Source: Cyanidioschyzon merolae (taxonomy: Eukaryota). Taken from it: a DNA stretch of 64,000 bases. The notes under the pieces are model-generated. The model did not search any database. It saw nothing but the letters and a program-made list of their open reading frames with translations, and had not been told where the DNA came from. The first letter of the stretch is position 1; each line of letters begins with the position of its first letter. The position numbers and the translations under genes were made by a program. The stretch is taken from assembly GCA_000091205.1 (NCBI GenBank), contig AP006502.2; one strand, written 5' to 3'. Shown piece after piece: positions 4,696-40,348 of this stretch.

Positions 4696-5985
4696 ATGGG
4701 ACAGTGCCTGAGCTGCACCCGAGCTAGGGGTCACCGCCGTGCTAACTTTGCCCCGACGGTAGCGGCAGACGGTACATCGACCGGCACGGGGGAGCAGGAG
4801 GAACCAGAGGAGGAGGAAGAGGCCGAGTCGCTCCTTTTCCCTCGCTTCAGTCGGGCAAAGGTGGACACTGAGAGCGTTGCACGCTTGCTTGATGACTCCA
4901 AGGCGGACGCAAAGGCTCGTATGGAACAGAGCCTGAAAACAGAGAGCAAGCGCGAGCGTTCCTCTACCCACAGCTCGTACACAGACGCGCAAGAAGAGTC
5001 GCAGGGGTCGTTTCGTCTCTCGAGAAGCACAAGCCGCTCCTTTTCGACGTCATCCGAAGTTGATGCCCTCAAGAGCACGCTCGCTGACCTGGAGGAACAG
5101 GTGAGCGTGGTCGAGTCTGAGGACGATGCCATTGAACTGCTCTGTCATATGGCGGATCTGCGACGAGAGATGCAGATCGTCGCAGCGCTCCGACACCCGC
5201 ATCGCGCCCAGAAGATTCACAGTTTGCTCATTCGTCTGGAATCCTTGATTCATCGCTTGCAGGCGTACGTGCTGCGGAGTCCTTCTCCTGATGGCTTTCG
5301 TCGAGTCCGTGAAAGCAGCCGAGGCGTCCTCTTCCAGCGCGGTGCTGCAGCTCGAGTGCGGCCAGTCACAGAAAGGGAACGTCACGCTTTACCCCATCGG
5401 TATCTGAGTTTCAACAGCGCCACTTTTTACGATTCGGGGGCCGTTCTTAAGAGGGAATCAACGGTGCGAGACCAGTCGGGGCAGCTGCGTATCGATCCAA
5501 CGCGTGGTGACGGCCGTTGCCTCTTCCGTTCGGTAGTACGGGGTCTTGCATTCTACGCAGGCCTCTACCCCGGGTCGAAATGGTCGGAACGACGTGAACG
5601 GCGCGAAGCAGATATCTTGCGATATCTCTGCGTACGAGAGATGCGAAAGCATCGAGACCTGTTTCTGAGAGACCAGGTCGTTGAAGAAGACTTTGATGAA
5701 CATCTGCGACGCCTCGTGCACAGTGATGAGTTCGCTGGCGAACCCGAGTTGCTCATTCTGGGACCGCTCTTACAGACACCAATCTGTGTCTATATGAGCA
5801 CGGGAGATCAAGCGGACGCCAATGCTGCTAGAAGCTCGTCCAATGAACGGACCAAGTCGAGTGATCTATTTCTGGTTGCCGTCTATGGTCGCAGTTTCAT
5901 CGCTGAACCTGTGAGTTTGCGGTATCAATCGATGCATTATGATCTGCTGCTTCCGCGAAGCGATCATGAACTCGGGAAAACTTAG
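4696..5985 (+). CDS. OTU-domain cysteine protease (deubiquitinase-like) with an N-terminal myristoylation/palmitoylation-type motif (MGQCLSC) and an acidic, Ser-rich central region
   Basis: OTU Cys-box DPTRGDGRCLFRSVV (D-G-x-C-L-F-R pattern) and His-box ...RYQSMHYDLLLP near the C-terminus. The longest ORF begins at 4378, but its first ATG in a good context that gives an MG start is at 4696-4698 (MGQCLSCTRARG: Gly2, Ser6, Cys4/Cys7). There is a Glu-rich stretch EEPEEEEEAE. Confidence 0.75.
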   Translation: MGQCLSCTRARGHRRANFAPTVAADGTSTGTGEQEEPEEEEEAESLLFPRFSRAKVDTESVARLLDDSKADAKARMEQSLKTESKRERSSTHSSYTDAQEESQGSFRLSRSTSRSFSTSSEVDALKSTLADLEEQVSVVESEDDAIELLCHMADLRREMQIVAALRHPHRAQKIHSLLIRLESLIHRLQAYVLRSPSPDGFRRVRESSRGVLFQRGAAARVRPVTERERHALPHRYLSFNSATFYDSGAVLKRESTVRDQSGQLRIDPTRGDGRCLFRSVVRGLAFYAGLYPGSKWSERRERREADILRYLCVREMRKHRDLFLRDQVVEEDFDEHLRRLVHSDEFAGEPELLILGPLLQTPICVYMSTGDQADANAARSSSNERTKSSDLFLVAVYGRSFIAEPVSLRYQSMHYDLLLPRSDHELGKT

Positions 5986-19665: not shown

Positions 19666-20964
19666 TCAAAGGAATAGTTGACGCACTTGGGCGTAAACTT
19701 CATCCACAGAGCGTTCTGCTGGGATGCGATGCACGCGCATGCGGCGTTCTAGAAACTCTATGACTGGCATGGTCGTCTCTATAAAAGTGCGAAAGCGCTT
19801 GCGAATAGATTCAGGATTATCATCGGTACGGCCGCTGCTGCGACTGCGCTGCAGGAGGCGGCGCTCCATTTCGGCTTCGGAACACTCGAAGAAAAGGCAA
19901 AAATCAGCGCGGCGGAGTAGACACTCAAAATCTATGGCTTGATCCAATGCACGAGGGAACCCATCGATCAACACACCAGGCACTGCGAGGGTGCTACCCG
20001 CATCAACTAGTTTCTTCCGTAAAAGTTCCAACGTGATATGACCGGGCACAATGGCGCCTTGGCGAATCATCTCGTCAATCAGCTGGCCCTGTTCGGACTG
20101 AGTCTGGATCTCAGCGCGCAGCAGATCACCTGCTGAAACATGCCAAAAACCAAACTCGGCGACGAGTCGGGCGCACTGGGTACCCTTGCCGGCGCCTGGG
20201 CCGCCGAGTACGAAAACCAACCGAGGCGGCAGACGCGCATGACCCTGCAACGAGGCAGCTTCCTGGAGGTACGCACCAAGCCACTCCAAGGGCTGCGCTG
20301 GCTGCGCCATACAAAGTCGGGATAATGCGGTCGTAAGCGTCTCTAGTACGGTGGAGCTCAAGTACGACTTTGCAGCGGAGCCTCCACCGGCCACTTGCTC
20401 GCCGACGACGCGCACTCGTTCGTATATGCGCTCCACTTCTGTTGCATCGTGGAAGCATTTCGCAAGATCACTCGTAATTTGCGTTACATCCCGACTGGTC
20501 CAGACCCCACAGTGCGCCTTATCCACGCCGAAAAGCGCACGAAGGCTTCGGGGCGCCAGGGCGCGGGCTTCAGCGGGGTCTACGGGTCCGCACAACTCGA
20601 GCCACCGTTTCCAGTCTGTCGCCGAAGTCTGCTCCAGAGGCGTTGCCTCTTCGTTCGACAGGAACACCATCTCGACAGGCGGAGTCGCTCTGCGAAGCAC
20701 GACGATCTCAGAACGCCCTTCACACAGCGCAGCGACGTGTTGTTCGTTGTGCACCTCATCGTCTGGGGCAGGCGTCGTGGTCTCGGCGGGCTCAGGTGAA
20801 AGCAGCGCACGCGCTCGTTCGGGCGTCCAGACGACGGTCTGCCGCGCAACCTCGGTCCAACCGTCTGTCTTTCGTGCGTACGCCAGAATCGGATCTTTTC
20901 GATAAAAAGCTTCCGGCTGAATAACGAGCAGCACAAAACCCGGCCAAGTCGTTCGTTGCGTCAT
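19666..20964 (-). CDS. UMP-CMP kinase (adenylate-kinase family) with a ~240-aa N-terminal extension that looks like a divergent nucleoside-diphosphate-kinase (NDK)-fold domain
   Basis: C-terminal domain: P-loop FVLGGPGAGKGTQCARLVAEFGFWHVSAGDLLRAE, then LIDGFPRALDQA and the LID/CMP-binding blocks typical of UMP-CMP kinase. N-terminal region: FVLLVIQPEAF (compare NDK FIAIKPD) ... LCGPVDPAEARALAPRSLRALFGVDKAHCGVWTSRDVTQITSDLAKCF (compare NDK [44 protein letters not shown]). The ORF-track start at 21003 is TTG. The first ATG is at 20962-20964 (MTQRTTWPGFVLLVIQ...). Confidence 0.8.
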   Translation of the reverse strand: MTQRTTWPGFVLLVIQPEAFYRKDPILAYARKTDGWTEVARQTVVWTPERARALLSPEPAETTTPAPDDEVHNEQHVAALCEGRSEIVVLRRATPPVEMVFLSNEEATPLEQTSATDWKRWLELCGPVDPAEARALAPRSLRALFGVDKAHCGVWTSRDVTQITSDLAKCFHDATEVERIYERVRVVGEQVAGGGSAAKSYLSSTVLETLTTALSRLCMAQPAQPLEWLGAYLQEAASLQGHARLPPRLVFVLGGPGAGKGTQCARLVAEFGFWHVSAGDLLRAEIQTQSEQGQLIDEMIRQGAIVPGHITLELLRKKLVDAGSTLAVPGVLIDGFPRALDQAIDFECLLRRADFCLFFECSEAEMERRLLQRSRSSGRTDDNPESIRKRFRTFIETTMPVIEFLERRMRVHRIPAERSVDEVYAQVRQLFL

Positions 20965-21102
20965 ATGCAGTGCAGCTTTGTGGCTGGAGCAGAAATACGG
21001 CAAGTGCTGTAGGCGTCGCTGTGTTGCCTAGTTGCTCGTTTGAAGTCAGTAGCGCATGCGACGCGCGTCATTCGAGCGACTCGCATCGATGGACACGGGA
21101 CA

Positions 21103-21272
21103 GCTATATCCCGTTTTGTACTGTATCGCATTCGCGCATCCCCGCATGCGCAGCGTGCATCCCCGGCATGTTGAGTTGATTCCTGAGATAGCTATATCCC
21201 GTTTTGTACTGTATCGCATTCGCGCATCCCTGCATGCGCAGCGTGCATCCCCGGCATGTTGAGTTGATTCTT
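21103..21272. repeat. Tandem duplication, 88-bp unit x2, 140-300 bp upstream of the UMP-CMP kinase gene start
   Basis: gctatatcccgttttgtactgtatcgcattcgcgcatccc(c/t)gcatgcgcagcgtgcatccccggcatgttgagttgattc occurs at 21103 and again at 21191 with 2-3 mismatches. Each unit contains the short palindrome-like element gcatgcgcagcgtgcatcc. Confidence 0.9.
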
Positions 21273-22757
21273 GGATCGTGCGCGGCACCCGGTTCATCCG
21301 TATGTTCTCGAATGGTTCATTCTACGTAGACGTCAGCGTGGGCGCACAGACGCTGGATCGCAGAGACGTGCATCGCATCGCTGTCGTGGAGGTGTCGACG
21401 TTTCACCAGCACCTCTGCAATGCTTTGCTTGGAAACAGGCACTCGATTCCCCGAAGCGCCGGGTCGCGCGTAGCAGCTTCATGCAACGCCGTTCATCGCG
21501 CATAAAGATGAAGTCAGCATTCGATGACGAGTGTGCGTATGCAGGTTCTGTCGAGAGGGTAGCATCCCCGGAGTCACGACTCGTACACAGCGACATGGTG
21601 ATCGGGGCGTCCATCATTGATCGCTGAGCGTACTCGTAGAGGTGATTAGGTCACGATGACTCGCTCAGTGGAGCGAGCATGAGAGGCGCGGCGCTTCCAG
21701 GACCTTTACGACAGAAAGGGACCGGGACGGAATGTGCCTCAGCGCCTCGTCAACAAATTCGCTGGGTCCCCATATAGCATCCATCCGGGGTCGTTCGTGT
21801 CATTGCGAAATGCACGCCTCCAGTCCCAGTGTGACTGCTCAATCGCAGCATGGCGCATCTGGTTCGAGCAAACGCTGTCCAACGGTGCGAATGGGATGTA
21901 AGACATCACGCCGGATTCGGGTTTTGCTGTTGTCGTGTGATCCGCCGTGTCGTTTCACGTCACATGCATGATCTGACACATGCGGATGAAATGGCCAGTA
22001 AACAACCGGAAAGCGTTCACTTTCTCCGGGTTTCTCATGCCAGCAAAGCTCTTGTTCTTCAGTGACAGGGAACTCCGCATGTGTACCACCCGCAAGCTTC
22101 GAGACGCCAAACTCCGCGCCTCATTTCGTCATCGCGCACCATTGCAGGCTCACAGCGGCACTGCAGCTGTCGCCTGCCCAGCATGGTAAGCAGCGAGGCG
22201 TCCGTGCGTCGCAGCACGTCGCTCTAAGCGGACGCATAGCGCCAACATACGGAGCCTGTGCGCGCCACCGCTACAATGCACGCCGCGCTCGTCCATTGAC
22301 CATGCGCGATGCACTAGACACACGCACGAGGCTACGAAACGACACCACTGCGGCGCGCCACGTAGACACGTGGCGCTCGTGCAGGCTCGCGCAGATGCGC
22401 CAGCGCATGCGATCCGTTGCGTCCGTGATGTTCCACATTATTCCTATTTAGTACATTCATGAAATAAATGGACAATGCACAAAGAACACAGCGCTGGGGT
22501 GGCATGGCGCGCAATTTGGCGCGAAGTCAGCGATGGCGCGCAAACTGGTTGAATACCCGCAACAGCTTCAAGCGCGTTAGGACTCGCCACCACGTATACG
22601 ATACTGTGGTTGCGTCAGTGTTCGTACTCGCGACATGTGGGTGGTCTTTGTGAATCAAGTAAGGCGCACGCATGATGGAATTGATGTATCGAGCCGTGGA
22701 CGCTGGTACTTAAATGCGAACAAGCTCCGGTGCAAGCGGGCTCGGTCGCTTGCGTAT

Positions 22758-25010
22758 ATGACTGTTGTTCGCAGCTTGCCACGGCCACCGGGCTTCTACG
22801 TGACGACGCAGGATGGTGACACGCTTGCGAGTATCGCGTCACGCTATGGCATTGACGCGAAACGTGTTTGGGAGCTGAATAACCGCGCTTCGCGTTTAGA
22901 GTTTAAGCGTGGCAAGTTCCCATTTCTCCCTGGTTTGAAACAGCACGAGGTTTCGAGGCAAGCGCCTTCAGGTGGCGTATCCCTAGAGGAGGCGCTGGAG
23001 CGGCCACTATGTTCTGGGCAACGCATCTTTGTACCGAATGAAACAGTTGCACAGACTGCAAAAGGCGGTAACCTCCATGGGGCTTCCTTGCGCCAAACGG
23101 CACCTCCAAAAACAGTCGAAGCACCTCCGGTTACCCGGACGTTTGTTCCTCCCAAGGCACAGACCACTCCGCAACAGAAATCTTCAGCAGCGATGGGTGC
23201 TCCATCCGCGCCACCGGCCAAGGGTGTCCCGGTTGTAGAGCAGCAGGCACTGCCGCCGTCACCACCATTACAGGGTACGCTCGTTGGCTCGGTTGGGACA
23301 ACGGATTTCTTCCTGGGCGTCTTCGCGGTGCTCGTTGGATTTTATTCGGCGAAGATGATGCTGCCGCGGTCGAATACCGAACCCGGAACGCAGCCAAAGA
23401 CCTCACTCCTAAAGGCCTTGTATAAGAGGCTCGTGGGCTTTCTACAGGCCATGATTACTGTTGCTGTTTTGATTGGGCTCGCGGCAGGCGCGCTAGGCGC
23501 TCGCCTCCGAGCGGCGCTGCTGTTCATCTTTAACGCCTGCACGATACTCTTACGTGGCGTATCGCAGATGATCGTCCTCTTCGGCCAGTTCATGTGCGGC
23601 ATGCTCGGTGTCGTGGCGCTTGCGGTTCAGGGTGTCGTTCAACTGTTCCAACGGCTTGCGCAGGCGGCATTCTTGCTGATCGCGTCGATTTTTTTGGTTA
23701 CGTGGCAGAGCGCGGTACGTCTCTGGTCGGCAGCCTCTACGCGTTCGAGCGCAGTACTAGAGAACATCACCCAGCGCGGGCTGTCACCATCGCTGCCCTC
23801 GGCGGAAACAGGATTGTGGTCTGTACCAGATGAGCGCTCTTCCTCCGTCGACCAGACGGCATCCGAGTCGTTCTTTGGGCTCATTCGGCAATTTTTCTCG
23901 CGGGATTCGGGAAGCGATCTCATTCGCTGCGTTCTTCGTGAACGCACCCAGATCTCGGACGCCTTCGTTCGAATGCGATTCGATCTTCCGGGACCCGACG
24001 ACCAGCTAGTTCTCCAGATGGGTCAACGCATCGAAGTGCATGTTCAGAAAAGCCGCCAAAGTCTCTGGAGTGACGTTCAGCCCCTTGATCAAGCGGAATC
24101 TTCTTGTGGGCTTGGAGCAATCAGGCCGCACCTGCTAGCGGTCGCCAGTGATCGCCATCAGCCTGGTAGCTTCGAGATCATAGTGCCCGTGTCGCACGCA
24201 CTGCAGCAAGTGCTTTGGGAAGCGAGCGACGCAGATAATGCGACGCATTCGGCTGCCGCTGCTCCAATGGACGCCGAGTACGATGGTGCTTTCAGTACAG
24301 GAAGCGATGTCCAGGTCCTGGAGCGGCCATCTACCTCCGACCACGTATTCTCGGCGACGTGCAGTGCAAACAATGACGAGTTCGACGAGCATTTCCTAAT
24401 CGCGCTTGAATCCCTTGTGGAAGGTGTTGATGCTATCCGCGTTCGACCAGCCCCGAATACGGAGCTCATCTACCGTCGCGCGATGAATCCCTCCGCTGGG
24501 ACCGTTGTGGTGCATAACGTTGTGCTCTTAGCATGCGGTCTGGGCATTGTATCCGCGGTGCGCATCGCCGACGAACTCCTACAAGACTCCGAGTCCGCGG
24601 TGAGCCGCATCACGCTAATCTATTATAACGAGCGCGCCCGAGATTTCATCCTCCTCGACGACTTGGAGCGCATGAGCAAAGACCATGGTGAGCGATTCCG
24701 CCTCCATTGTGTTTGGAATGAGAACGCTGGCGCGTACCTTGCCAGCACAGGATTCCCCCGAGCTGCAACGGCTTCCGCTGGTGCGGGTACAAGCGCAACC
24801 GTCGCTGCCGCCGCAGCCAGACGCAACGGCTACGGCCGTGAAAGACGCGCGGCACAGCCGGTGCCTGCTACCGTCCGGGTGATATCGGCCATACCAGCGT
24901 GGACGGAAGGTACAATGGCCATTATCAGCGGGAACGAGTCATTCTCCCAAGAAATGTGGTACGCCTTGGGGGACTCGGGTTACCCGGAGGACGCGATCAC
25001 CTTCATATAA
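22758..25010 (+). CDS. LysM-domain protein with a multi-pass hydrophobic region and a large C-terminal domain of unknown function
   Basis: LysM signature FYVTTQDGDTLASIASRYGIDAKRVWELN near the N-terminus. Then a P/A/Q-rich low-complexity stretch, then predicted TM helices (FLGVFAVLVGFYSAKMML; ITVAVLIGLAAGALGA; IVLFGQFMCGMLGVVALAVQGVV; AAFLLIASIFLVTWQSAV), then ~430 aa with no recognised motif. First ATG used is at 22758 (MTVVRSLP...). The ORF extends upstream to 22635. Confidence 0.55.
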   Translation: MTVVRSLPRPPGFYVTTQDGDTLASIASRYGIDAKRVWELNNRASRLEFKRGKFPFLPGLKQHEVSRQAPSGGVSLEEALERPLCSGQRIFVPNETVAQTAKGGNLHGASLRQTAPPKTVEAPPVTRTFVPPKAQTTPQQKSSAAMGAPSAPPAKGVPVVEQQALPPSPPLQGTLVGSVGTTDFFLGVFAVLVGFYSAKMMLPRSNTEPGTQPKTSLLKALYKRLVGFLQAMITVAVLIGLAAGALGARLRAALLFIFNACTILLRGVSQMIVLFGQFMCGMLGVVALAVQGVVQLFQRLAQAAFLLIASIFLVTWQSAVRLWSAASTRSSAVLENITQRGLSPSLPSAETGLWSVPDERSSSVDQTASESFFGLIRQFFSRDSGSDLIRCVLRERTQISDAFVRMRFDLPGPDDQLVLQMGQRIEVHVQKSRQSLWSDVQPLDQAESSCGLGAIRPHLLAVASDRHQPGSFEIIVPVSHALQQVLWEASDADNATHSAAAAPMDAEYDGAFSTGSDVQVLERPSTSDHVFSATCSANNDEFDEHFLIALESLVEGVDAIRVRPAPNTELIYRRAMNPSAGTVVVHNVVLLACGLGIVSAVRIADELLQDSESAVSRITLIYYNERARDFILLDDLERMSKDHGERFRLHCVWNENAGAYLASTGFPRAATASAGAGTSATVAAAAARRNGYGRERRAAQPVPATVRVISAIPAWTEGTMAIISGNESFSQEMWYALGDSGYPEDAITFI

Positions 25011-25577: not shown

Positions 25578-28500
25578 CTAGGAATGCGTTCGAGTGGGCG
25601 GCATCGCTGCCCCATTGTTGCCGCGCGGCGGAGAAGAAGCCATCTGCTCGAGCGCTTCAAGCTCCGCTACGGTGTTCACGCCCTCTAGACGCCAGAGAAG
25701 ACCGCTTTCTTCACGAACACAATAAACATCGACGTCATAGCCACAGTCCACTGCCATCTGAACGAGATCAGTGGCGTAGTATTCGAAGCGCTCAGGTACA
25801 GGACTCGAACTGCGCACCCGCTGGTTGCCTTTGTCGACTCGATGCGGTAGCGACGCTGCAAGGAGCTGCATCGAAAGCGCACGATCCACCACCATGATGC
25901 CGGAGTAGAATTCTCGAATGGCCAGGATCTGGGCGCCGTCTGGTCGCTGCAGGGCCTCGCGATACTCCACAATGGCGCGCAGGGCGCCGCTCTGGGCGTC
26001 GCGAACAACGCGTCCATAGGCGCCCGCGTCTCTGGACGTATAGCATCCGCTCAAAATGACGCCGAACGTCTGCGATGGCCCGTTTGGATGGGCCGCTGCC
26101 TCACGCTGACGGCTTCGTTGATCTAGCAGTGGTTCCAGAATCGCAGAATCTACCCCTGGATTATCGCCGTAGAGCACGAGTATGTCACCGGAGAACGTCG
26201 AAAGCGTCGAGCACAGGGCCGCATAGAGGGCGTGGCCGGTCCCGAGCGGCTGGCTCTGGCGAACCAGGAGGTACGGGAGCGCGTCAAGCGCTGTTCGGAT
26301 AGCGCCTTCGACAGACTCGTTGCCGACCACGACAGTCGGTATTCCCATGGTGTGGAGCGTCTCCACCACATGTCGAAGCATGGGTTTGCCACAGAACGAA
26401 TGCACGACCTTGGGGTACGCAGCGCGGAACCGAGTACCTCGTCCCGCGGCGAGCACGATACCGACCACAGCAGCACTTTGGAGTTGCGCTTGCCAGGCGG
26501 ATGCTGGCCCCAACTCGCCAGCGTCTGCCTCAGCCAAAAGCGCACCAGCTACTTCCAAATCGCCCAATCTCGAGGTTTCCGCCAGGCGAATGCCGAATGA
26601 ACCACTTTCAAGGTGTCGGAGTTCATTCTCTGACAGCGACGTGGCCACCTGCTCCAAGATTTGTCGAAGCCGCGACCGCAGCAGCCTTTCTAGCCGACGG
26701 GCGAGCGTTTTGGCGACCTCACCCTCCAGGGCGGTTGAACTGACTTCCACGCGTATCCGCCAGAACGGCTGTGTGCGCGACGGACGTACCAGCACGCTCA
26801 CAGCGTCCTCAATCGACACATCTGGAAATTCCAGCTGAATCCGTTGTAGTTGCTCATCGATGAGGGCCGTTTGCACCCATTCCGGATCTAAGACGCGAGT
26901 TTCGTCTGCAGTGTAGCGCCAGTTTGCTGCGGCGTAGCGACTCGCCTGGCGCAGAAGCGGTGTTTCCATGTCATGCTCTGTGAGCTGCGCGTTCACCACT
27001 TCGCTGTGTCCAGCCGAAGCAAACACCTCTAAACGTTCTAATAAATGCGTGACTGGCTCCGTACGAAGCAGCGCCTCCATCGTAAGTAAGGTGGCAACGC
27101 CGTCGCTGCCCGCGGGGTTCGCCAATCGCGCCAACGATACGATGCATTCAGCAGCGTACCGCGCTTCCCGCGTCAGGGGCGTGCTCACGTCCCGCAACAA
27201 CAACTCGTAGAGCTGACGCTGCACCAGAGGTGCCACGTAACAACCAACATGTCCATTCGGCTCGGCATAGACGGCGAGATTAAAGCAGCGCTCGACGATA
27301 TCGCGGCCGTACTGAGCGCCTGTGGGCACCAGCACCAGGTTGCCATCGCAGAGCGCACGGATTCGCTCGCGATACACACGTCTGCAGTAAGCTGTTAGCG
27401 CACAGCCGAACGATAGTCGGGGCAGTACTTGTATGGGTGTAGTTGTTGTTTCCGGGGCCGCCACGAGCAACTGGACGCAGCGGCGCAGGAATGCAACCAA
27501 ACAGAGCGCTATCCAGTCACCGTCGTAGACTACGATGGATGAAATCGATGATGCCTCTTTCGTTCGACCCGCTGAACGCTGCTCGGATGATGCGTAGTAG
27601 ACCAGGCGATCCGCATCGCCGTCCAGAGCCGCCATGCGGTCGCCCGACACGAGACAACGGAAGTCATCGCCGTGTCCAGCGTGCTGGTGGATGTACTCAG
27701 CCCCGCAGCGCTCGTTCACGGCCTGCGACTCCTCATGTCGATGCGTCGTGCTCAGCGGAAACGATAATAGCGATGATACCTCCGCAAGCACCACCGAAGC
27801 TGATCCATATGCGCAATCAACTCGAAGTCTCGTCGTCGAGTCGACTGCGCCCGATCCAGTCACCTCGGGATCCCGTTGCAGCGCTCGACAAAGCGCATGG
27901 TACCCTTTGACGAGCCGTTCGTGGACATAGGCATCAAAGGTACTCAATCGTCCATTTTGCGATGCCCAGACTGCGTACTGCGTGAATGGTGTGGTGGTGA
28001 GGCCCAGATTTCGCACCCCCGAGCACTGCGTCGCTCGTAGCAAGACTTCTAAAGCTACCTGTGCGAGACGAGCGGAACTCGGACGATTGTCGTAGCCGAG
28101 GATGACGACACCACCGCGCCCGGACTTGTCGTCGATGCTTGAGCCTGCCGCTCCCGGGAGAGTCGCGGTTTTCTCGGCGGCGGCCGGTTCCCTGCCATGA
28201 AGCATTCGATGCGCTAGGCGGTGGAACAGGGAACCAAGAGCCACAGCCCTCGGTGCATGAATCGGTACCGTCAGCGTTTCCACGTTCATTCCGTCGAAAG
28301 AGTCGTTATTCGCGGAATCTGTTGGTGGTGCCAGCGTCTCCTGCAGCAGGTCTGCGAAGAACTCTCCCAGCAAGGGGTGCGGCGTATCCTGGAGGTGCGC
28401 TTGCAACAGACCCCCGTCGCTGCGCACAACCTTGACGCCGTTCTCACTTGACGGGTTGTGGGAAGCAGTTATCATCAGGCCCAGTACACACTTTCGAAAA

Positions 28501-28928
28501 GAAGCGACCAGCGCGACGACAGCTGCGGCTCGGGCGACAACAGCGTCCAAAGCGGGTCCGTCGCGTACGCGGACGCCTGCACCGGTATAACGCACGGCTT
28601 CTGTGAGCGGGTATCGATTGGAAAGCCAGTTTGCGAGCTCGTGAAAGGGATAGGGAGAAGCATCGGTCGTGTTTAGACATTGACCGGCTTCGGAACGTTC
28701 CCCTAACGAGCAGAGCGTGGCACGTCCGACACCGCCAGCGAGCTTGCAGGGTCGCAACCGCACGCTGCGAGGCGGTGCGCGACCACGGAGCCTAGTTTGG
28801 TGCCTCGTTATAGGACGAAGCTGAGGCGAAACCGTTCGTCGACTTGCAACCAGGGCCAAGTCAGGGACCAGGCCGCTTGCCCCGAACATGAAGTGTACTC
28901 GGTGCGAAAAATCGATGGCGAGCGTCAT
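25578..28928 (-). CDS. Bifunctional fusion: phosphoacetylglucosamine mutase (AGM1/PGM3-type alpha-D-phosphohexomutase) followed by a GlmU-type N-acetylglucosamine-1-phosphate uridylyltransferase N-terminal domain, with no LbH acetyltransferase domain
   Basis: Mutase part (approx. 26705-28610): YTGAGVR (compare YGTAGFR), active-site loop GLMITASHNPSSENGVKVV (AGM1 signature GVMITASHNP..DNGVK), Mg-binding LDGDADRLVYY, sugar-binding AEPNGHVG, phosphate-binding LVRPSRTQ (compare RPSGTE). Uridylyltransferase part (approx. 25638-26471): VGIVLAAGRGTRFRAAYPKVVHSFCGKPMLRHV (compare GlmU LAAGKGTRM.S.LPKVLH.LAGK.M..HV), QPLGTGHA, ILVLYGDNP, YGRVVRD...AIVEY, FEYYATD (compare GEYYxTD), LEGVNT. The longest ORF extends to 29372 (GTG). 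Plausible ATGs are at 28926-28928 (MTLAID...) and 28887-28889 (MFGASGLVP...), about 100 aa before the first conserved mutase block, so an N-terminal targeting extension is possible. Confidence 0.8.
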   Translation of the reverse strand: MTLAIDFSHRVHFMFGASGLVPDLALVASRRTVSPQLRPITRHQTRLRGRAPPRSVRLRPCKLAGGVGRATLCSLGERSEAGQCLNTTDASPYPFHELANWLSNRYPLTEAVRYTGAGVRVRDGPALDAVVARAAAVVALVASFRKCVLGLMITASHNPSSENGVKVVRSDGGLLQAHLQDTPHPLLGEFFADLLQETLAPPTDSANNDSFDGMNVETLTVPIHAPRAVALGSLFHRLAHRMLHGREPAAAEKTATLPGAAGSSIDDKSGRGGVVILGYDNRPSSARLAQVALEVLLRATQCSGVRNLGLTTTPFTQYAVWASQNGRLSTFDAYVHERLVKGYHALCRALQRDPEVTGSGAVDSTTRLRVDCAYGSASVVLAEVSSLLSFPLSTTHRHEESQAVNERCGAEYIHQHAGHGDDFRCLVSGDRMAALDGDADRLVYYASSEQRSAGRTKEASSISSIVVYDGDWIALCLVAFLRRCVQLLVAAPETTTTPIQVLPRLSFGCALTAYCRRVYRERIRALCDGNLVLVPTGAQYGRDIVERCFNLAVYAEPNGHVGCYVAPLVQRQLYELLLRDVSTPLTREARYAAECIVSLARLANPAGSDGVATLLTMEALLRTEPVTHLLERLEVFASAGHSEVVNAQLTEHDMETPLLRQASRYAAANWRYTADETRVLDPEWVQTALIDEQLQRIQLEFPDVSIEDAVSVLVRPSRTQPFWRIRVEVSSTALEGEVAKTLARRLERLLRSRLRQILEQVATSLSENELRHLESGSFGIRLAETSRLGDLEVAGALLAEADAGELGPASAWQAQLQSAAVVGIVLAAGRGTRFRAAYPKVVHSFCGKPMLRHVVETLHTMGIPTVVVGNESVEGAIRTALDALPYLLVRQSQPLGTGHALYAALCSTLSTFSGDILVLYGDNPGVDSAILEPLLDQRSRQREAAAHPNGPSQTFGVILSGCYTSRDAGAYGRVVRDAQSGALRAIVEYREALQRPDGAQILAIREFYSGIMVVDRALSMQLLAASLPHRVDKGNQRVRSSSPVPERFEYYATDLVQMAVDCGYDVDVYCVREESGLLWRLEGVNTVAELEALEQMASSPPRGNNGAAMPPTRTHS

Positions 28929-30713
28929 CGCCTGTGCGCACAAGCTCACTGGCGATGTTCGCTTAGGACCCGTCCCGTTCCGAATAACTTCCTGTTGGGT
29001 TCCGCATGAAAGATTTCCTGCTGGACGCTGTGATCTTCGTTGTGTCGAGAGGGTTCCGTGGGAGCTTGGACTTTGGGTGCAGTTATGGAATACGGAGACC
29101 AGTGGGGCTATGCATAGACCCCTGCAAACAAGTGCTGAGCATTTCCAGGAGGAATCGTATGCGCGCGCAGTCTGTTGCAGGTTCGGTGGACGCCCATTCG
29201 TGGTCAGCGCTTTCTCGGGTATGAGTAGCGTCGCATGCTGCCCGTTCGCCCTTGTTGAAGAGCCGGAACTCGACACGCGAGGAAGCGTCGACTCAACGAT
29301 GGATCCGATTGTTCTGAAAACGTACATATATGTACAATGGACAGATCGCTGTACTGTAATGCGTGCGCGCACGGAAGCAGTGCACGCTTCGACCGAGTCT
29401 TCGGTGCGTTCGATTCTTCGCGAAAAATAAAGATATTTATCATTTACAATTCACTGGACTGCACGCGTGCACAAGGGCGCAGCATCGACAGCGCGCCGTT
29501 CAAATCGCCGGGTCAAGCGCCGAGCGCTCCGGGTCGCCCGCTTCAGCAGCGCGTTTTTCTCACTGTTCGCCGTTGCCGCAGCGCTGCCTCCAAATGGGCG
29601 AGACAGGGCGCTCCGAAATGTACCGACTGCTTGCGTTCGAAATGAGTAGACTCAAACTGACTATGGAACGGTTGGGTGAGACTCTGGACCGTACCGATGC
29701 AACGACAGCGGCAGCGATAGGTTTTGTGTTGTTGGGCACGCAACTGAGCGTGGGCGCGCGCTGTGCTCTCCAGACAGCCCCAGCGCAACGATCCGTCGAG
29801 TCCACGTCACAGGACGCCTCTGAGCTGGCAACTGAGGAGTAAACGCGTTGTGTGCGCGCGATTACGACTTAAAAAAGTGCCATGAACGCGTTGCATCCCG
29901 CAGAGGATATGCATCGGAGTGTAGGCGGGTCGAATGGGCGGTGCTTCCGGCTTGTTTGTAAGCGGGGGCGCACCACTGCGCCGCCCAGCTCTGAACAAAG
30001 TGCCAAGATCGTGCGGACACCTGCCGCTGTTATTGGAGGTGCAGAATCGGGCGACTCGCTGCAGCCGCACCGGGCCGGCATTCCCCGGAAGAAAGCTCCG
30101 CCAGCGCATCCACCAAAGCGAGGTCGCGTGGCGTGCGAGCTCCGCGCCCCAAGCCACAGAGGTTTGAAAATCCTTCATGGTCTCGTCAAGCGTGCTGCTC
30201 TCTGGTGAAAGCCGGTCGGCATGTACGCAGTCCACCTCCGTGTTGTTCTTCAAATCGCGCCTGATAACATCCATAGTTTACGGTGACGAGGTGCCTTTGC
30301 CAGAGTCGGAACGCTGGCGCACTGCCAGAATGTTTCCCTGGGCCATGCATTGCTTAAGAGCAGTCATCCTAGAATAAATCCAAGACCCAGACTTTGAGCC
30401 TCGCTTCACAATGAATCAAATGCAAGTATCGTCTCCAGAGCATCTTGCAGCGCTCGATTCGCGGGAGCTTGTTTCCGCTGACGGACGTTTTCGGTCGACC
30501 GACAACAAGTGACGCAGCATAGTCTCTGTTCCAGCGACTTTGTGCGATACGAACGGGCTTAACAAACGAGCACCTCATCGTCGAACCTGATGCGGTGTTA
30601 CCAGAACTGTCTCTGAGGCAGTCCGGCGTCTCTATGTAAAACACGCGCCTCCACTTCGCTCATTGGCAGTGTGAAAAGTCTACGAGCAGCGCTCGGTTTT
30701 CACGTCGCTTTCG

Positions 30714-33044: not shown

Positions 33045-36017
33045 TCAGCTGCGTCGACGGGAGCCCGTATCTGTCGCCACACCAGCGAAATCGTTGCCCT
33101 GAAGCCGATACGTTCGATAGGAACGTTGGAGTAAGAATCCTTGCAGATTCAGCATATCGATAAACTGCGAGAAATCGGTTCCATGTTCAATATGATGTTG
33201 CTGAGCGATTTGCCGCAGTTCATCGAGGTGAAAAAGAGCATTCTGGCGACGGTTCGCCTCCTGGTGCAGCACCAAAAGGAACCGCCGAACATCGTTCGCA
33301 CGACTGGTGCCGCCTACGCGCGAAAAGTCAAGCACCCCGCGTTCATCCGAGTACACGTCCAGCATGGAGCACTGCATGATTTCAATGACATCGCGAGCAT
33401 CCTGAGCGCTAACAACGGAGCGAAGTTCAGCGCGCGCTCTTGCTTGTGCAAGTCGTTTCAGCGACTCAAGCTGACGAGTGGTGACCGGTGGCAGCGCCTC
33501 ATGACCGTGAACACCAGCAAGCGCATGCGCATTCCGGCGCATGAGTAGATAAAAATCGCGCAGGATTTGTTTCGCCTCTACACTCAGCACAGGGTGAATA
33601 AAGCGGCGCGCAAAGGCCACGTATGTTCGGAGATCCCGCGTAGATGCGGGCTTTTGTGCCCATTTCCTCGACTGCTGGAGGCGCTGCCAGAGGCTAACGC
33701 CCACGCTGCATTCTCCCGCCTTGTTGTTGGTAGCGGGCGGACTCGAGCCGTCGCTCGACTCTGTCGAGAGCGACCAGCGCATGGGTGCCGCGCGCTGGCG
33801 CCGCCCGCCAAACGTGGCCATGACATGCTCCGAGATGCGCTGGTCGCGGCAGCGGTCAGGCTGATCCTGAATCACAAAGACGAGGTCAAATCGTGAGAGG
33901 AGCGCGGGACACATTTTCAAGTTCTCGCAGACGGTGCGACGCTTGTCGTAGTGCCCTCCGATAGGATTTGCAGCCGCCAAAATGGAAGCCCGGGCAGCGA
34001 GTGTGCCGACAATGCCCGCCTTGGCGACACTGATGCTCTGCTGTTCCATGGCCTCCAAGAGTACCTGATAGTCCGCAGACATCTTATCGAATTCATCGAT
34101 GCAGCAAATGCCCCGGTCGGCGAGGACGAGCGCACCCGCCTCAAGCACGTACTCGCCGCTGCCGGACTCGCGACTTACGGTAACTGTCAAGCCCGAGTTG
34201 GTCGTGGTGTTGCCACAGACATAAACGGAGCGCGGGAGCAGTGCAGCAGCCGCTCGCAGCATCTGCGATTTCCCGACACCGGGATCTCCAACGACGAGTA
34301 CATGGATGTCGCTACGCGCTACGGAATGCTCCAGCGACTGCTGGTGTTCGCTCGCATCGCTCGCGTGCAATGCAGAGAGAATGTCGCTGTCCAGCATAGA
34401 GATGCCTGCTGGCCCGACATTATCTATGGCGGGGACCGGACGGGTTCCGCCACGGTTGCTGCCGCCCAGAATACCCAGCAAAAGCGCCGCCTTAATGATA
34501 TCATGACCGCATATGAGCGGACATAGCGATTGCACGAGGAACTCGAAGACATGTCCGCGATGCTCCAAAATTCCCCGGATGCACCGGAGATCCTCATCCG
34601 TAAACGAATCTGCATGCGGCCTGGAGCCACCGATGCCGGCTGGCCGAACCATGGTACCCTTGGATCGAAGCGACTGCGAGGTCTGGCCTCCGTCTTGCTC
34701 AGTGGCTGGATCTGGGGCGGCTGCCTCGAAGGTTGTCGCATCAGCAGCAAGCTCCCTCTGTTCGCCTTCCTTGGCGTCGTTGGTGGGAGTCAGCGAAATT
34801 ACCTCGAGGTAGACTTGGTAGAGCGCGTGGTCGCGGCCCCGTCGCGCGCGTGACGCATCCGCATCAAGACTCAGAAACCTGACAATGCCAACAACATCGA
34901 CGATATCACCGGGCACTACAGTGTCCAACATGTCTGCATACGTGAGCTCGCACTCCACGGTCCGCGGTATACCGCCGACATCGGCAACATTGCCCACAGA
35001 CGACAGCTCCTGCAGACGAATCCGTTGCCAGTCTAAAGTTACAGCCGAGCACCGATCCGGAAGAAAAACACGCGATTTGCATTCGGCAGACGCCATACAA
35101 TGCGGTGGTGGATTATACTGAAAGTTCGGGCATGTGACACGTTGGCTTTTGCCACATGTCGCGCAGGCAACGCTGATTGAGGACAACTGAGGACGGATGC
35201 TGCTCATTCGAATCACGGTGCCTCGAATACCAACGAGGCGGCCAACCGCATGTGCGCGCAGTTCGCTAAAATCGGTTTGGTCGCGTAGCCCCTGAAGGCG
35301 AACGACGGCGCGCGGTAAGCGAACAGCAGCCAGGTGCTCACCAATAAGGTCCAGGTATTGCTGAGGGCAAGAACCGAGAGCATGGAGATGATCGGCGCGA
35401 ACCCATGCGTGGATCTTCACTACCTGCACGATGGCCAGACCGAGGCAGTTCAGGGACTCCTCGGGGTTCTCTATAACGGCGTCAGCAAAGGTGCTCATGG
35501 TAGGCGAGCGCACAAGCAGCGTGTGCTCGACCGGCACGCTGATCTCATCAATGGTATCCATGAAGACACGGCAGCGCTGCATGTCGCCATCGGTTTCGGC
35601 GGATAAACGCTGCCAGCGATCAGTCGCGTCCATGGACTTTTCTCGGAGAGATTCGTCTCCACTTTCGAACGGGAACACTGACAGACCCGCTGCAGCACCT
35701 ACGATGCAGCTTCCAGAACCCGTGTCGTTCCCAGCAGGTCCCAGAGCGTTTACCCGAGCTGAAGACAGCGGCGCTGGGCGAACGGATTCGAGTGCTTGAC
35801 CTAGAGACGGTATACCAACCGCGGCAGCTGTCTGTTCGTAGCGGCACCGTGCTTGCGTCGCAACTGACTGCCCCTCTTGCGAAAGCAGAAACAATACAAC
35901 ATTTGCGGTGATTGCAAGACGAAAGTCACGATTCGTAGCGTTGCTATCCGCGTCGGTATCGTCTGCCCAAGCGTAGCACTCATACTCTGGCAGCCCAAGG
36001 GGGAAGCGAAGCTGCAT
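33045..36017 (-). CDS. MCM8: MCM8 (minichromosome maintenance 8-type AAA+ helicase)
   Basis: The AAA+ core (VGDPGVGKSQMLRAAAALLPRSVYVCGNTTTNSGLTVTVSRESGSGEYVLEAGALVLADRGICCIDEFDKM...LLEAMEQQSISVAKAGIVGTLAARASILAAANPIGGHYDKRRTVCENLKMCPALLSRFDLVFV) is near-colinear with human MCM8 rather than MCM2-7 or MCM9 (GDPGLGKSQML...YVCGNTTTTSGLTVT...EAGALVL.D.GIC.IDEFDKM). There is an N-terminal OB/Zn region with CATCGKSQRVTCP...C. ATG confirmed at 36015-36017 on the minus strand. Confidence 0.85.
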   Translation of the reverse strand: MQLRFPLGLPEYECYAWADDTDADSNATNRDFRLAITANVVLFLLSQEGQSVATQARCRYEQTAAAVGIPSLGQALESVRPAPLSSARVNALGPAGNDTGSGSCIVGAAAGLSVFPFESGDESLREKSMDATDRWQRLSAETDGDMQRCRVFMDTIDEISVPVEHTLLVRSPTMSTFADAVIENPEESLNCLGLAIVQVVKIHAWVRADHLHALGSCPQQYLDLIGEHLAAVRLPRAVVRLQGLRDQTDFSELRAHAVGRLVGIRGTVIRMSSIRPQLSSISVACATCGKSQRVTCPNFQYNPPPHCMASAECKSRVFLPDRCSAVTLDWQRIRLQELSSVGNVADVGGIPRTVECELTYADMLDTVVPGDIVDVVGIVRFLSLDADASRARRGRDHALYQVYLEVISLTPTNDAKEGEQRELAADATTFEAAAPDPATEQDGGQTSQSLRSKGTMVRPAGIGGSRPHADSFTDEDLRCIRGILEHRGHVFEFLVQSLCPLICGHDIIKAALLLGILGGSNRGGTRPVPAIDNVGPAGISMLDSDILSALHASDASEHQQSLEHSVARSDIHVLVVGDPGVGKSQMLRAAAALLPRSVYVCGNTTTNSGLTVTVSRESGSGEYVLEAGALVLADRGICCIDEFDKMSADYQVLLEAMEQQSISVAKAGIVGTLAARASILAAANPIGGHYDKRRTVCENLKMCPALLSRFDLVFVIQDQPDRCRDQRISEHVMATFGGRRQRAAPMRWSLSTESSDGSSPPATNNKAGECSVGVSLWQRLQQSRKWAQKPASTRDLRTYVAFARRFIHPVLSVEAKQILRDFYLLMRRNAHALAGVHGHEALPPVTTRQLESLKRLAQARARAELRSVVSAQDARDVIEIMQCSMLDVYSDERGVLDFSRVGGTSRANDVRRFLLVLHQEANRRQNALFHLDELRQIAQQHHIEHGTDFSQFIDMLNLQGFLLQRSYRTYRLQGNDFAGVATDTGSRRRS

Positions 36018-36269
36018 CGGAGCCGGTTCGGAGGCTTGGCGGTTGCGCTACTCCGGCAGCGCCAGCGTGATCCGCCCGTGAACTTCCCGAAAAGAAAGTA
36101 TGGATGAGATTTCGAGCTCGCGTGGAACGGTAGCGCTTACAGAAACTTGTTAAAACACGAGCTGCCGTCCAACCAGGGCAAGTGTGACGGAGTCTTGTCG
36201 CGAATCGTGTGCAAATGACAACATAGCAGCTGCACTGCTCAGGGAAGTGTTCGACGTTGTCGCTCTGCG

Positions 36270-36297
36270 CGCACACGCACACACGCACACACGCACT
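36270..36297. repeat. (CA)n/(CACG)n microsatellite in the MCM8 5' flank
   Basis: gcacacgcacacacgcacacacgcac read directly. Confidence 0.85.
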
Positions 36298-36362
36298 GCA
36301 GCTCCCGTTGCACGCATACGTGACACGTGTCCGCGGCTGCGCATCTGCACGCATGCATTAGA

Positions 36363-36374
36363 TTTCGCGCCAAA
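36363..36374. promoter_or_regulatory. Palindromic E2F-type site TTTCGCGCCAAA, ~350 bp upstream of the MCM8 start codon
   Basis: gatTTCGCGCCAAAaac is TTTCGCGC on one strand and TTTGGCGC on the other, i.e. the canonical overlapping bidirectional E2F/DP consensus TTTSSCGC. MCM genes are classic E2F targets. A 12-mer like this is expected well under once by chance in 64 kb. Confidence 0.4.
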
Positions 36375-38248: not shown

Positions 38249-40348
38249 CTAACGGTCAGCAAGGCCTAGCCTGTCTGCTTTGGAAAGAAAGCACCACGGA
38301 CGCACCGAAGGTGGCTTTTCTAGGGCGTCACCGGGGTATGCGTCCTGGTGAACAACCCCATCTTTCGGTGCAGGCCAGGCTTCGAGATGCTGCCAAGCGC
38401 TGCCCAGCCGGGAGGCAAGCGCTGCTGGCATCTCGCTCAGGCGGCCGTCACGAGCCTGGAAAAGGCGCGCAGACAGCGCGCCTCGCGGCATCAGGGTTCG
38501 TTTGTCGGTCTCAGCGTGTAATGTAGCCGCTGCTGCCCCGGTCTGGGATAGAAACGCCTCCCAGTGAAGCATCGCGAATGGCGAAAGCGGCCCTTTGAAT
38601 TCGAGCGTGACCGAGTAAGACGGAGTGCAGTCTCGCGGTCCAGTCGAGGAACACGGATGTGATACTTCATCGCCGGCCAGTAACACGTCATCATCGCCGA
38701 TGAATGTATAGTCGGTCAGTACGAGACTTGCACCCATGAACGGAACGTCACTCGAGGCCAGCAAAAGCGGCACATCCGTATTTGAAAACAACCAAGGCCC
38801 AAAATGCAGAAGGAGCTCAAAGAGACCCTGAACGTTTCCGGCGCCACGAACGACAACTGGACAAGAGCGTGACCTGGCAGCGTCAACTGGCTGCGACATC
38901 CAGTCCTTCTCAAATGTCGCATCCGCGCGCATAAAGTGCGGTGAAACTGCAGGTCGCACACTGCGCTGATCTCCTAGCACATCATACTGTACTGCAAAGA
39001 TAGAGTCGAGTAGGTTGCGAACCCGCTCTGTCGTATGGGACATAAAACCAAACGGCAGCGCGAGATTTCGCTGTTTCTCTTCTTTCATCGACTGGGTGTT
39101 CGCATTGGCGCCCATCGACGAGGGTGCCTTTTTCTGATCGCCGCCGCAGTTGCCCTGACGTGGAGCCGTCTCCAGTCCCGATATCCAGCCAAAGGTCGCC
39201 CAGTAATGATCACCAACCACATGGAAACCCGTGGATCGAGCCAAGGTCTCGGGCGGAGTGCATTGCGCAGCTCTTCGATACACACGGTACAGGGGCAGAA
39301 ACGCTTGGCGCCAACGCGAGATGCGTTGTTGCCACCACTGCAAGGCAGGAAGCTCGCAATTCGTCGATAAATGCATATTCCAGCCTGCCAAGTCCTCCAA
39401 CAACAATGGAAGCGTCTGAGGCTGTGGCGACAAGCCTGCCGAGAGTCTGCGATCCGCAGCAGCACCAGCCTGTGAAGCTCGAGCGCCATCACTTTTATTC
39501 GGCAGTTGCGTACCACGTTGCGGCCGTCGCACGCCTGGATGCCAGAGTTGCTGGAAGTCAAACTCCTCCTCATGCAACGCACGGTGGGCTAGGCTCAGGC
39601 GCCGCACCCAGGACCAGGCGCGCTTCTGTTCTGGGCCAGCCGCCGCAGCGGGAAAGCAGTAACACGACATGGCCCTCACAGCTGGCCCAACAGGGTCGAG
39701 GTTGTACCCTCGCGCTTGTCTGCTTTCAGCGATCGATGCGACGGCGTGCAAACGACGCATAGAGCGTACGCACTCGAGCGCACGCTTTCGGTCAACGAAC
39801 CGCAGGGTCATTCGTATGCAGCGCCGAAGCACCAGATCGCCTGGTATATGGGTACAGGGTGCTGGTCCTCGGTTGGGGAGACCCTCCTCGCGTTCGTCCG
39901 GGGGAAACTCGGGTGGCGTTTCCGGTTGCCTACTCGGTGATGCCTCGAGAAGGCTTGCGTCTATCCGCGCAAGCGACTCCTCAAGAACGCTAGAGTGATT
40001 CGTGTAAACTAAAGAGCTACGTTCTTCCCATCCTGTGGACGTTCCTTGCCAACAATCTTCGACATCCAAGCTGCTCGCTGGTTTTTGTAGTTCGTTCGCT
40101 GACCAGACCGGCTCGTTCGAGTCTCGACCACTGTCTGTGGCGCGTCTAGCTTCCCGTCGGCGCTTGTACTCTAGCGCCGTCAGCGTTTCGATTTCTTCAG
40201 CTTCTAAGTCAGCTTTCATAAGCTCATCATCATTACGAAGAGGTGAAGCCCTCGAATCCGTCAACGTCCCCGAAGAGGCGCTCCTGGAAGGACACTGTCG
40301 TTTTTGGTATCTCGCCTGGAATGAGTGCCGGCGCTGGCCAGTATGCAT
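38249..40348 (-). CDS. Hypothetical protein (699 aa) with no recognisable domain
   Basis: Uninterrupted ORF with ATG confirmed at 40346-40348 on the minus strand. Composition is less low-complexity than the 10696 ORF, with blocks such as LLLHFGPWLFSNTDVPLLLASSDVPFMGASLVLTDYTFIGDDDVLLAGDEV. No family was assigned. Confidence 0.4.
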   Translation of the reverse strand: MHTGQRRHSFQARYQKRQCPSRSASSGTLTDSRASPLRNDDELMKADLEAEEIETLTALEYKRRREARRATDSGRDSNEPVWSANELQKPASSLDVEDCWQGTSTGWEERSSLVYTNHSSVLEESLARIDASLLEASPSRQPETPPEFPPDEREEGLPNRGPAPCTHIPGDLVLRRCIRMTLRFVDRKRALECVRSMRRLHAVASIAESRQARGYNLDPVGPAVRAMSCYCFPAAAAGPEQKRAWSWVRRLSLAHRALHEEEFDFQQLWHPGVRRPQRGTQLPNKSDGARASQAGAAADRRLSAGLSPQPQTLPLLLEDLAGWNMHLSTNCELPALQWWQQRISRWRQAFLPLYRVYRRAAQCTPPETLARSTGFHVVGDHYWATFGWISGLETAPRQGNCGGDQKKAPSSMGANANTQSMKEEKQRNLALPFGFMSHTTERVRNLLDSIFAVQYDVLGDQRSVRPAVSPHFMRADATFEKDWMSQPVDAARSRSCPVVVRGAGNVQGLFELLLHFGPWLFSNTDVPLLLASSDVPFMGASLVLTDYTFIGDDDVLLAGDEVSHPCSSTGPRDCTPSYSVTLEFKGPLSPFAMLHWEAFLSQTGAAAATLHAETDKRTLMPRGALSARLFQARDGRLSEMPAALASRLGSAWQHLEAWPAPKDGVVHQDAYPGDALEKPPSVRPWCFLSKADRLGLADR

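Follow-up and report, generated by a model that had tools for sequence, protein, structure and literature searches.

Does the E2F-type double site upstream of MCM8 in the red alga Cyanidioschyzon merolae serve as a regulatory element of this gene, or does it only resemble one? The site had been singled out in an earlier note on a 64-kb stretch of chromosome 20 (the whole stretch of DNA that was analysed, referred to hereafter as the window); the genome is ~57% GC, near-intronless and gene-bearing on both strands, and MCM8 is the sole recognisable replication gene within the window. We found the exact 12-mer where it had been reported (36363..36374), reading TTTCGCGCCAAA on the plus strand and TTTGGCGCGAAA in the orientation of the gene (minus strand). 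Its description as the classic E2F/DP consensus overlapping on both strands was borne out by two matches to TTTSSCGC, TTTCGCGC on the plus and TTTGGCGC on the minus strand, which overlap on opposite strands at these positions.

The downstream gene is MCM8, as had been proposed. Its intronless coding sequence (33045..36017, minus strand, 990 aa, ATG at 36017) corresponds at 100% identity to XP_005539141.1 (CMT087C) of C. merolae 10D, and the protein comprises MCM_OB, MCM P-loop and MCM_lid domains together with the MCM8-specific winged helix (Pfam PF25051, WHD_MCM8). The top matches among solved structures (PDB) are MCM8 proteins (E ~1e-156), far above MCM2-7, and a profile search with the MCM8 alignment for further red-algal orthologues recovered the same eight proteins only. 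Because Met1 is invariant in the orthologue alignment, the distance from site to start codon can be taken as correct: the site spans -357 to -346 from the ATG (346-357 bp), in agreement with the ~350 bp previously estimated. At this distance the site may sit farther from the transcription start than typical E2F sites do. The intergenic region upstream of MCM8 measures 2231 bp, carries a short upstream ORF between the E2F-type site and the MCM8 ATG, and yielded no known RNA family in Rfam.

How unusual the site is depends on the length of the motif considered. The degenerate double site TTTSGCGCSAAA was found once in the 64-kb window against 0.01 expected, while the TTTSSCGC 8-mer is not enriched (14 found, 15.8 expected in 64 kb) and most of its copies lie within coding sequence. 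The assertion that the site is statistically unlikely thus holds for the 12-mer, but not for the 8-mer, and a lone 8-mer match is meaningless here because it occurs at the chance rate. Since the first choice of the site was post hoc, its real support has to come from cross-species conservation rather than from a single-sequence statistic.

The trans-acting components are in place. The earlier note had suggested looking for E2F/DP genes, whose absence it would have counted against the site; both are characterised in C. merolae, where the literature lists one E2F (CMT067C), one E2F7/8-like protein (CMT433C) and three DPs (CML181C, CMT601C and CML315C; PMC11231608), along with RB (CMT038C). When E2F is degraded by induction, G1/S is delayed and the expression of 201 genes falls, PCNA and RNR-beta1 among them (PMC11376382); 118 of the 201 E2F-dependent genes are cell-cycle dependent, and the RB-E2F-DP pathway gates S phase to the evening. 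The premise that MCM-family genes are E2F targets holds for MCM8 itself, which is a documented target in human and mouse (Hayashi et al. 2006, Gene 367:126, as cited in the literature searched) and in Arabidopsis is responsive to E2Fa-DPa. In C. merolae, CMT087C rises under nickel stress with MCM2-7, GINS and PCNA; the text of a 2009 microarray study counts pcna, mcm3 and mcm6 among the S-phase genes and makes no mention of MCM8.

The phylogenetic footprint of the site was assessed in syntenic loci recovered from four further lineages by exact-protein look-up: Cyanidiococcus yangmingshanensis (L008, L076), a third lineage represented by GCA_041825655.1 (L002-L007, L077), Cyanidium caldarium (L075) and a second Cyanidium-like lineage (L078). 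The identity of their MCM8 proteins to that of C. merolae amounts to 65% in Cyanidiococcus, 63% in the third lineage, 48% in L075 and 49% in L078. The DNA upstream of MCM8 is unalignable between lineages (whole-region MAFFT returned noise with misaligned motifs), and we made use of k-mer sharing together with randomisation (Markov-1) in place of MAFFT alignment. In gene orientation, the MCM8 promoters contain TTTGGCGCGAAA at -357 from the ATG in C. merolae and at -323 in Cyanidiococcus, ATTGGCGCCAAA at -291 in the third lineage, and TTTGGCGCGAGA at -140 in Cyanidium caldarium (L075) and at -133 in the Cyanidium-like lineage (L078). The core TTTGGCGCG is therefore found in four of the five lineages, the remaining one (GCA_041825655.1) having its variant at the same place, and in all five the orientation is the same, with the T-run distal to MCM8. 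As Cyanidium has TTTGGCGCGAGA, the conserved part is restricted to this one-sided core in a fixed orientation. The term 'bidirectional', by which the site had been introduced, consequently fits C. merolae (where both strands match), but does not describe a conserved feature.

Further evidence was obtained from exact matches between otherwise dissimilar regions. The only 14-mer common to the MCM8 upstream regions of C. merolae and Cyanidiococcus (L008) is TTTGGCGCGAAATC, which contains the E2F site, and any shared 14-mer was reached in 2% of the Markov-1 randomisations. Within the C. merolae clade, six alleles differ at ~20 variable sites per kb upstream of MCM8 and at none between -381 and -262; this invariance around the site lends weak, low-power support, as the expectation for 105 bp is ~2 variants. 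Taken together, these comparisons indicate that the site is under purifying selection in five lineages, in a fixed orientation and a promoter-proximal position.

Conservation of this kind is confined to few genes of the region. For 13 syntenic gene groups, we tabulated TTTSSCGC in the upstream DNA (<=500 bp) of every lineage, and two groups only, MCM8 and CMT084C, had it in each of them. The eleven other groups (RPL1, PAP-fibrillin, adenylate kinase/Dpy-30, PGM-NTP-transferase, NUDIX, the upstream neighbour of MCM8, ETF-QO, RING, TGT, a 350-aa gene and a protein kinase) gave four matches in 13.6 kb, none of them conserved beyond the two Cyanidium contigs, which are close relatives of each other; two of these matches come from Cyanidium, where they fall in the divergent promoter of CMT084C. 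In control intergenic regions, three lineages had no k-mer of at least 10 nt in common. The tabulation indicates that, within the syntenic set, such selection acts on particular genes only.

The second conserved E2F-type site, TTTGGCGCGAAG (22515..22526, plus strand), lies 120 bp upstream of the ATG of CMT084C (22635..25010, plus strand, 791 aa; identical at 100% to CYME_CMT084C), a cytochrome-b5-reductase-like protein with LysM and FAD_binding_6/NAD_binding_1 domains. The core TTTGGCGCG recurs 96-266 bp upstream of the CMT084C orthologues, in the same orientation in all five lineages, and in the window ATGGCGCGCAA repeats flank the site on both sides (22504-22514 and 22533-22543). These observations make CMT084C a candidate second E2F target; the literature searched contained no mention of this gene.

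Several other features of the region were recorded along the way. The 1264-aa gene at 25578..29372 (minus strand) combines phosphoglucomutase/phosphoacetylglucosamine-mutase domains with a MobA-like nucleotidyl-transferase domain, a fusion kept in all five lineages (1075-1264 aa). The divergent promoter that it shares with the NUDIX gene (29373-30713; L008 9863-11373) has no E2F-type site in any lineage, and there C. merolae and Cyanidiococcus have in common the 15-mer GCTGCGTCACTTGTT, perhaps a conserved regulatory element of another kind. At 21102-21270 an 88-bp unit is duplicated in tandem (1.9 copies, 98% identical), ~100-270 bp upstream of the adenylate-kinase/Dpy-30 gene (19666..21003, minus strand), and each copy contains ATTCGCGCAT and GCATGCGC. 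The upstream same-strand neighbour of MCM8 (38249..40348, minus strand) encodes a conserved protein of 699 aa without a Pfam domain, with orthologues at L008 3063-5009, L075 20151-21818 and L078 20165-21832. The Cyanidium orthologues bear a 'faint' match to DONSON (a replisome assembly factor) in precomputed annotation, for which hmmscan (E<=1) and a PDB profile search returned nothing, the single-sequence fold having a pLDDT of 39; in Cyanidium, the promoters of this neighbour and of MCM8 have the 12-mer GGCGCGAGACGC in common.

The E2F-type site of C. merolae does not stand by itself. A palindrome with a CACGTG core (TGACACGTGTCC on the plus strand, GGACACGTGTCA in gene orientation) is located 30 nt away, at 36321..36332, and GACACGTGTC was found once in the 64-kb window against 0.21 expected. 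The only 11-mer common to the MCM8 upstream regions of C. merolae, Cyanidiococcus and the third lineage is GGACACGTGTC (0.2% of randomisations), and GGACACGTGTC(C), with its CACGTG core, is palindromic and conserved in the orthologous promoters of these three lineages, the features by which a G-box/E-box is recognised. The full 12-bp palindrome GGACACGTGTCC occurs at 36321-36332 of the window, at 5662-5673 and 2641-2652 of L008 and at 2247-2258 of L002, the second perfect copy in Cyanidiococcus belonging to the divergent promoter next door; neither Cyanidium lineage has the palindrome in its MCM8 promoter. The gap between palindrome and E2F site is 4 and 6 nt in the other two of these lineages, compared with 30 nt and a different motif order in C. 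merolae.

The cluster includes further short motifs. The only two copies of TGCACGCAT in the 64 kb are both found in it, on the plus strand (36309..36317, and 36346..36354 between the palindrome and the E2F site), and single copies adjoin the E2F site in L008 (5711) and L002 (2284). The 10-mer ACGCACTGCA (36291..36300, plus strand) is common to the same three lineages (C. merolae, Cyanidiococcus and the third), and its significance is uncertain because it overlaps the end of a CGCACACA microsatellite. This microsatellite, (CGCACACA)x3.6 at 36268-36296, adjoins the motif cluster, and one C. merolae-clade allele (L069) has an 8-bp insertion in it. From its distribution, the CACGTG palindrome looks like a clade-specific partner site, and together with TGCACGCAT it probably provides sites for partner factors within a 70-90 bp cluster in the Cyanidioschyzon/Cyanidiococcus clade. 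According to the literature, C. merolae has a single bHLH gene; a search of it for binding of the element by a bHLH or bZIP dimer gave no data. One could go further and regard GGACACGTGTCC, the E2F site and TGCACGCAT as a lineage-specific composite module, through which a CACGTG-binding dimer (e.g., the single bHLH) would couple RB-E2F control directly to light or circadian gating at particular S-phase promoters, and CMT084C would mark an unrecognised red-algal S-phase activity; we offer this as a speculation, and a rather improbable one.

Metagenome contigs were also scanned for the composite pattern GGACACGTGTCCN{2,9}TTSGCGC. The 60 matches correspond to about the chance expectation (by our own estimate) and none is similar to the loci studied here; since the sites of L002 and L008 themselves were not returned, the collection evidently lacks the Cyanidiales contigs, and given both this and the chance-level number of matches the scan is uninformative on the regulon. 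Among the matches, GGACACGTGTCCGCGTTGGCGCGAA recurs in four contigs from different metagenomes (L009, at 764-785, L017, L028 and L066), and was dropped as the ORFs around it are short, overlapping and without a Pfam match. One sample that carries it (Ga0078972) also has C. merolae-like contigs.

We consider it highly probable, chiefly from the conservation data, that the 12-mer is a functional E2F-family binding site in the promoter of MCM8 (CMT087C). The core TTTGGCGCG would be recognised by a heterodimer of CMT067C with one of the three DPs (CML181C, CMT601C or CML315C). During G1, RB (CMT038C) bound to E2F would hold the MCM8 promoter off; at the evening-gated G1/S transition, phosphorylation of RB by CDKA-cyclin would allow E2F-DP to activate transcription, and MCM8 would be expressed along with the replication and repair machinery. 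We infer that E2F occupies this particular site and that CMT087C owes S-phase periodicity to it. The site would add a further case of a well-known mechanism, from an alga in which the pathway is already characterised.

The same element could instead be used mainly by CMT433C, the atypical, DP-independent E2F7/8-like protein, acting as a repressor that would silence MCM8 once cells have entered S phase. E2Fs of the atypical class carry two DNA-binding domains and, like the others, recognise TTTSSCGC-type sites, which is in line with the palindromic double site of C. merolae and Cyanidiococcus, and C. merolae possesses one member of each E2F clade, both induced at G1/S. The second half of the palindrome is, however, not kept in Cyanidium (TTTGGCGCGAGA), a single conserved half-site in a fixed orientation fits E2F-DP equally well, and no functional data on CMT433C were found in the literature searched. 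We regard predominant use by CMT433C as unlikely; it is compatible with activation by E2F-DP, and the two could occupy the site in turn.

The E2F-DP reading has further to be set against the possibility that a real cis-element is read here by an unrelated factor with a preference for GGCGCG (a CAMTA-type CGCG-box binder or a red-algal factor), the E2F match being coincidental. On either side of the CMT084C site there are GC-rich GGCGCGC repeats that lack the T-run, and such repeats are seen again in the orthologues; of the two GGCGCGAGACGC copies in the Cyanidium promoters of MCM8 and its neighbour, the neighbour's is without the T-run. Yet the T-run, which is the E2F-specific part of the consensus and lies outside the CGCG box, is kept as TTTGGCGCG in nine of the ten promoters, and MCM8 belongs to a classic class of E2F targets in an alga in which E2F is active. 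These points render a CGCG-box factor very unlikely.

Still less probable is that the element serves another transcript, either that of the upstream same-strand neighbour, at its 3' end, or one within the 2.2 kb of intergenic DNA that is antisense or has escaped annotation. It is true that this region is long in C. merolae, that in metagenome contigs the cluster is covered by small ORFs predicted by gene callers, and that in Cyanidium the stop codon of the neighbour precedes the site by only ~140 bp. These small ORFs show no conservation, however, because the DNA is unalignable, and Rfam gave no match. The distance to the MCM8 ATG is kept (-133 to -357), whereas that to the neighbour's stop codon ranges from ~140 to ~1870 bp, and the same motif is found upstream of CMT084C amid entirely different neighbours. 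A functionless chance match, for which the chance-level frequency of TTTSSCGC in this 57% GC genome (14 copies, ~16 expected per 64 kb) and the post hoc choice of the site could be invoked, is the least credible explanation of all: the motif precedes MCM8, always in one orientation, in five lineages between which the rest of the intergenic DNA cannot be aligned, is absent as a conserved match from the 11 other syntenic promoter groups, and (with TTTGGCGC expected ~0.02 times per 500 bp per strand) would be repeated in three further independent lineages with a probability of ~1e-5 by our own estimate, conservation data which, in our judgement, effectively refute it.

C. merolae is a leading model for the links of the cell cycle with the alternation of day and night and with the division of organelles. 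As an E2F-DP target, the site would be a concrete promoter element for its RB-E2F-DP pathway, and the TTTGGCGCG core, with its fixed orientation in five lineages, offers a concrete sequence to mutate in a tractable alga. The motif may also help to tell which of the 201 responsive genes are direct targets of E2F and which are indirect ones. The control of MCM8 by E2F, known in animals and plants, would thereby be extended to red algae, consistent with an ancient link. Our understanding of the E2F mechanism is unchanged by the finding; the points of (modest) interest that it adds are the deep conservation, the fixed core and orientation, the companion palindrome and CMT084C.

Known systems offer three comparisons. 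The first is with the E-box plus E2F composite promoters of animals and with the plant G-box, which the MCM8 promoters of three lineages resemble in that a CACGTG palindrome adjoins an E2F site; here the palindrome is a longer 12-mer (GGACACGTGTCC), absent from the MCM8 promoters of Cyanidium, and its order and spacing differ in C. merolae. The second is with the RB-E2F-DP module of the same organism (Miyagishima et al. 2014; Fujiwara et al. 2024), in which CMT067C activates S-phase genes, CMT038C restrains this E2F and the pathway is gated to the evening. As far as the literature searched shows, these studies defined the proteins and the responsive transcriptome rather than cis-elements; that literature yielded neither a description of E2F cis-elements in C. 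merolae nor ChIP data for its E2F. The closest comparison is with the MCM8 promoters of mammals (Hayashi et al. 2006) and of Arabidopsis. The present site differs from the mammalian ones in belonging to a red alga (Cyanidiophyceae), in its distance of ~350 bp from the ATG and in being known from sequence comparison, and its companions in C. merolae, a CACGTG palindrome and TGCACGCAT motifs, differ from the mammalian partner sites. Gene, factor family and the presence of TTTSSCGC 5' of MCM8 are alike, and so is the logic, by which a site detected by comparative genomics is linked to expression at G1/S.
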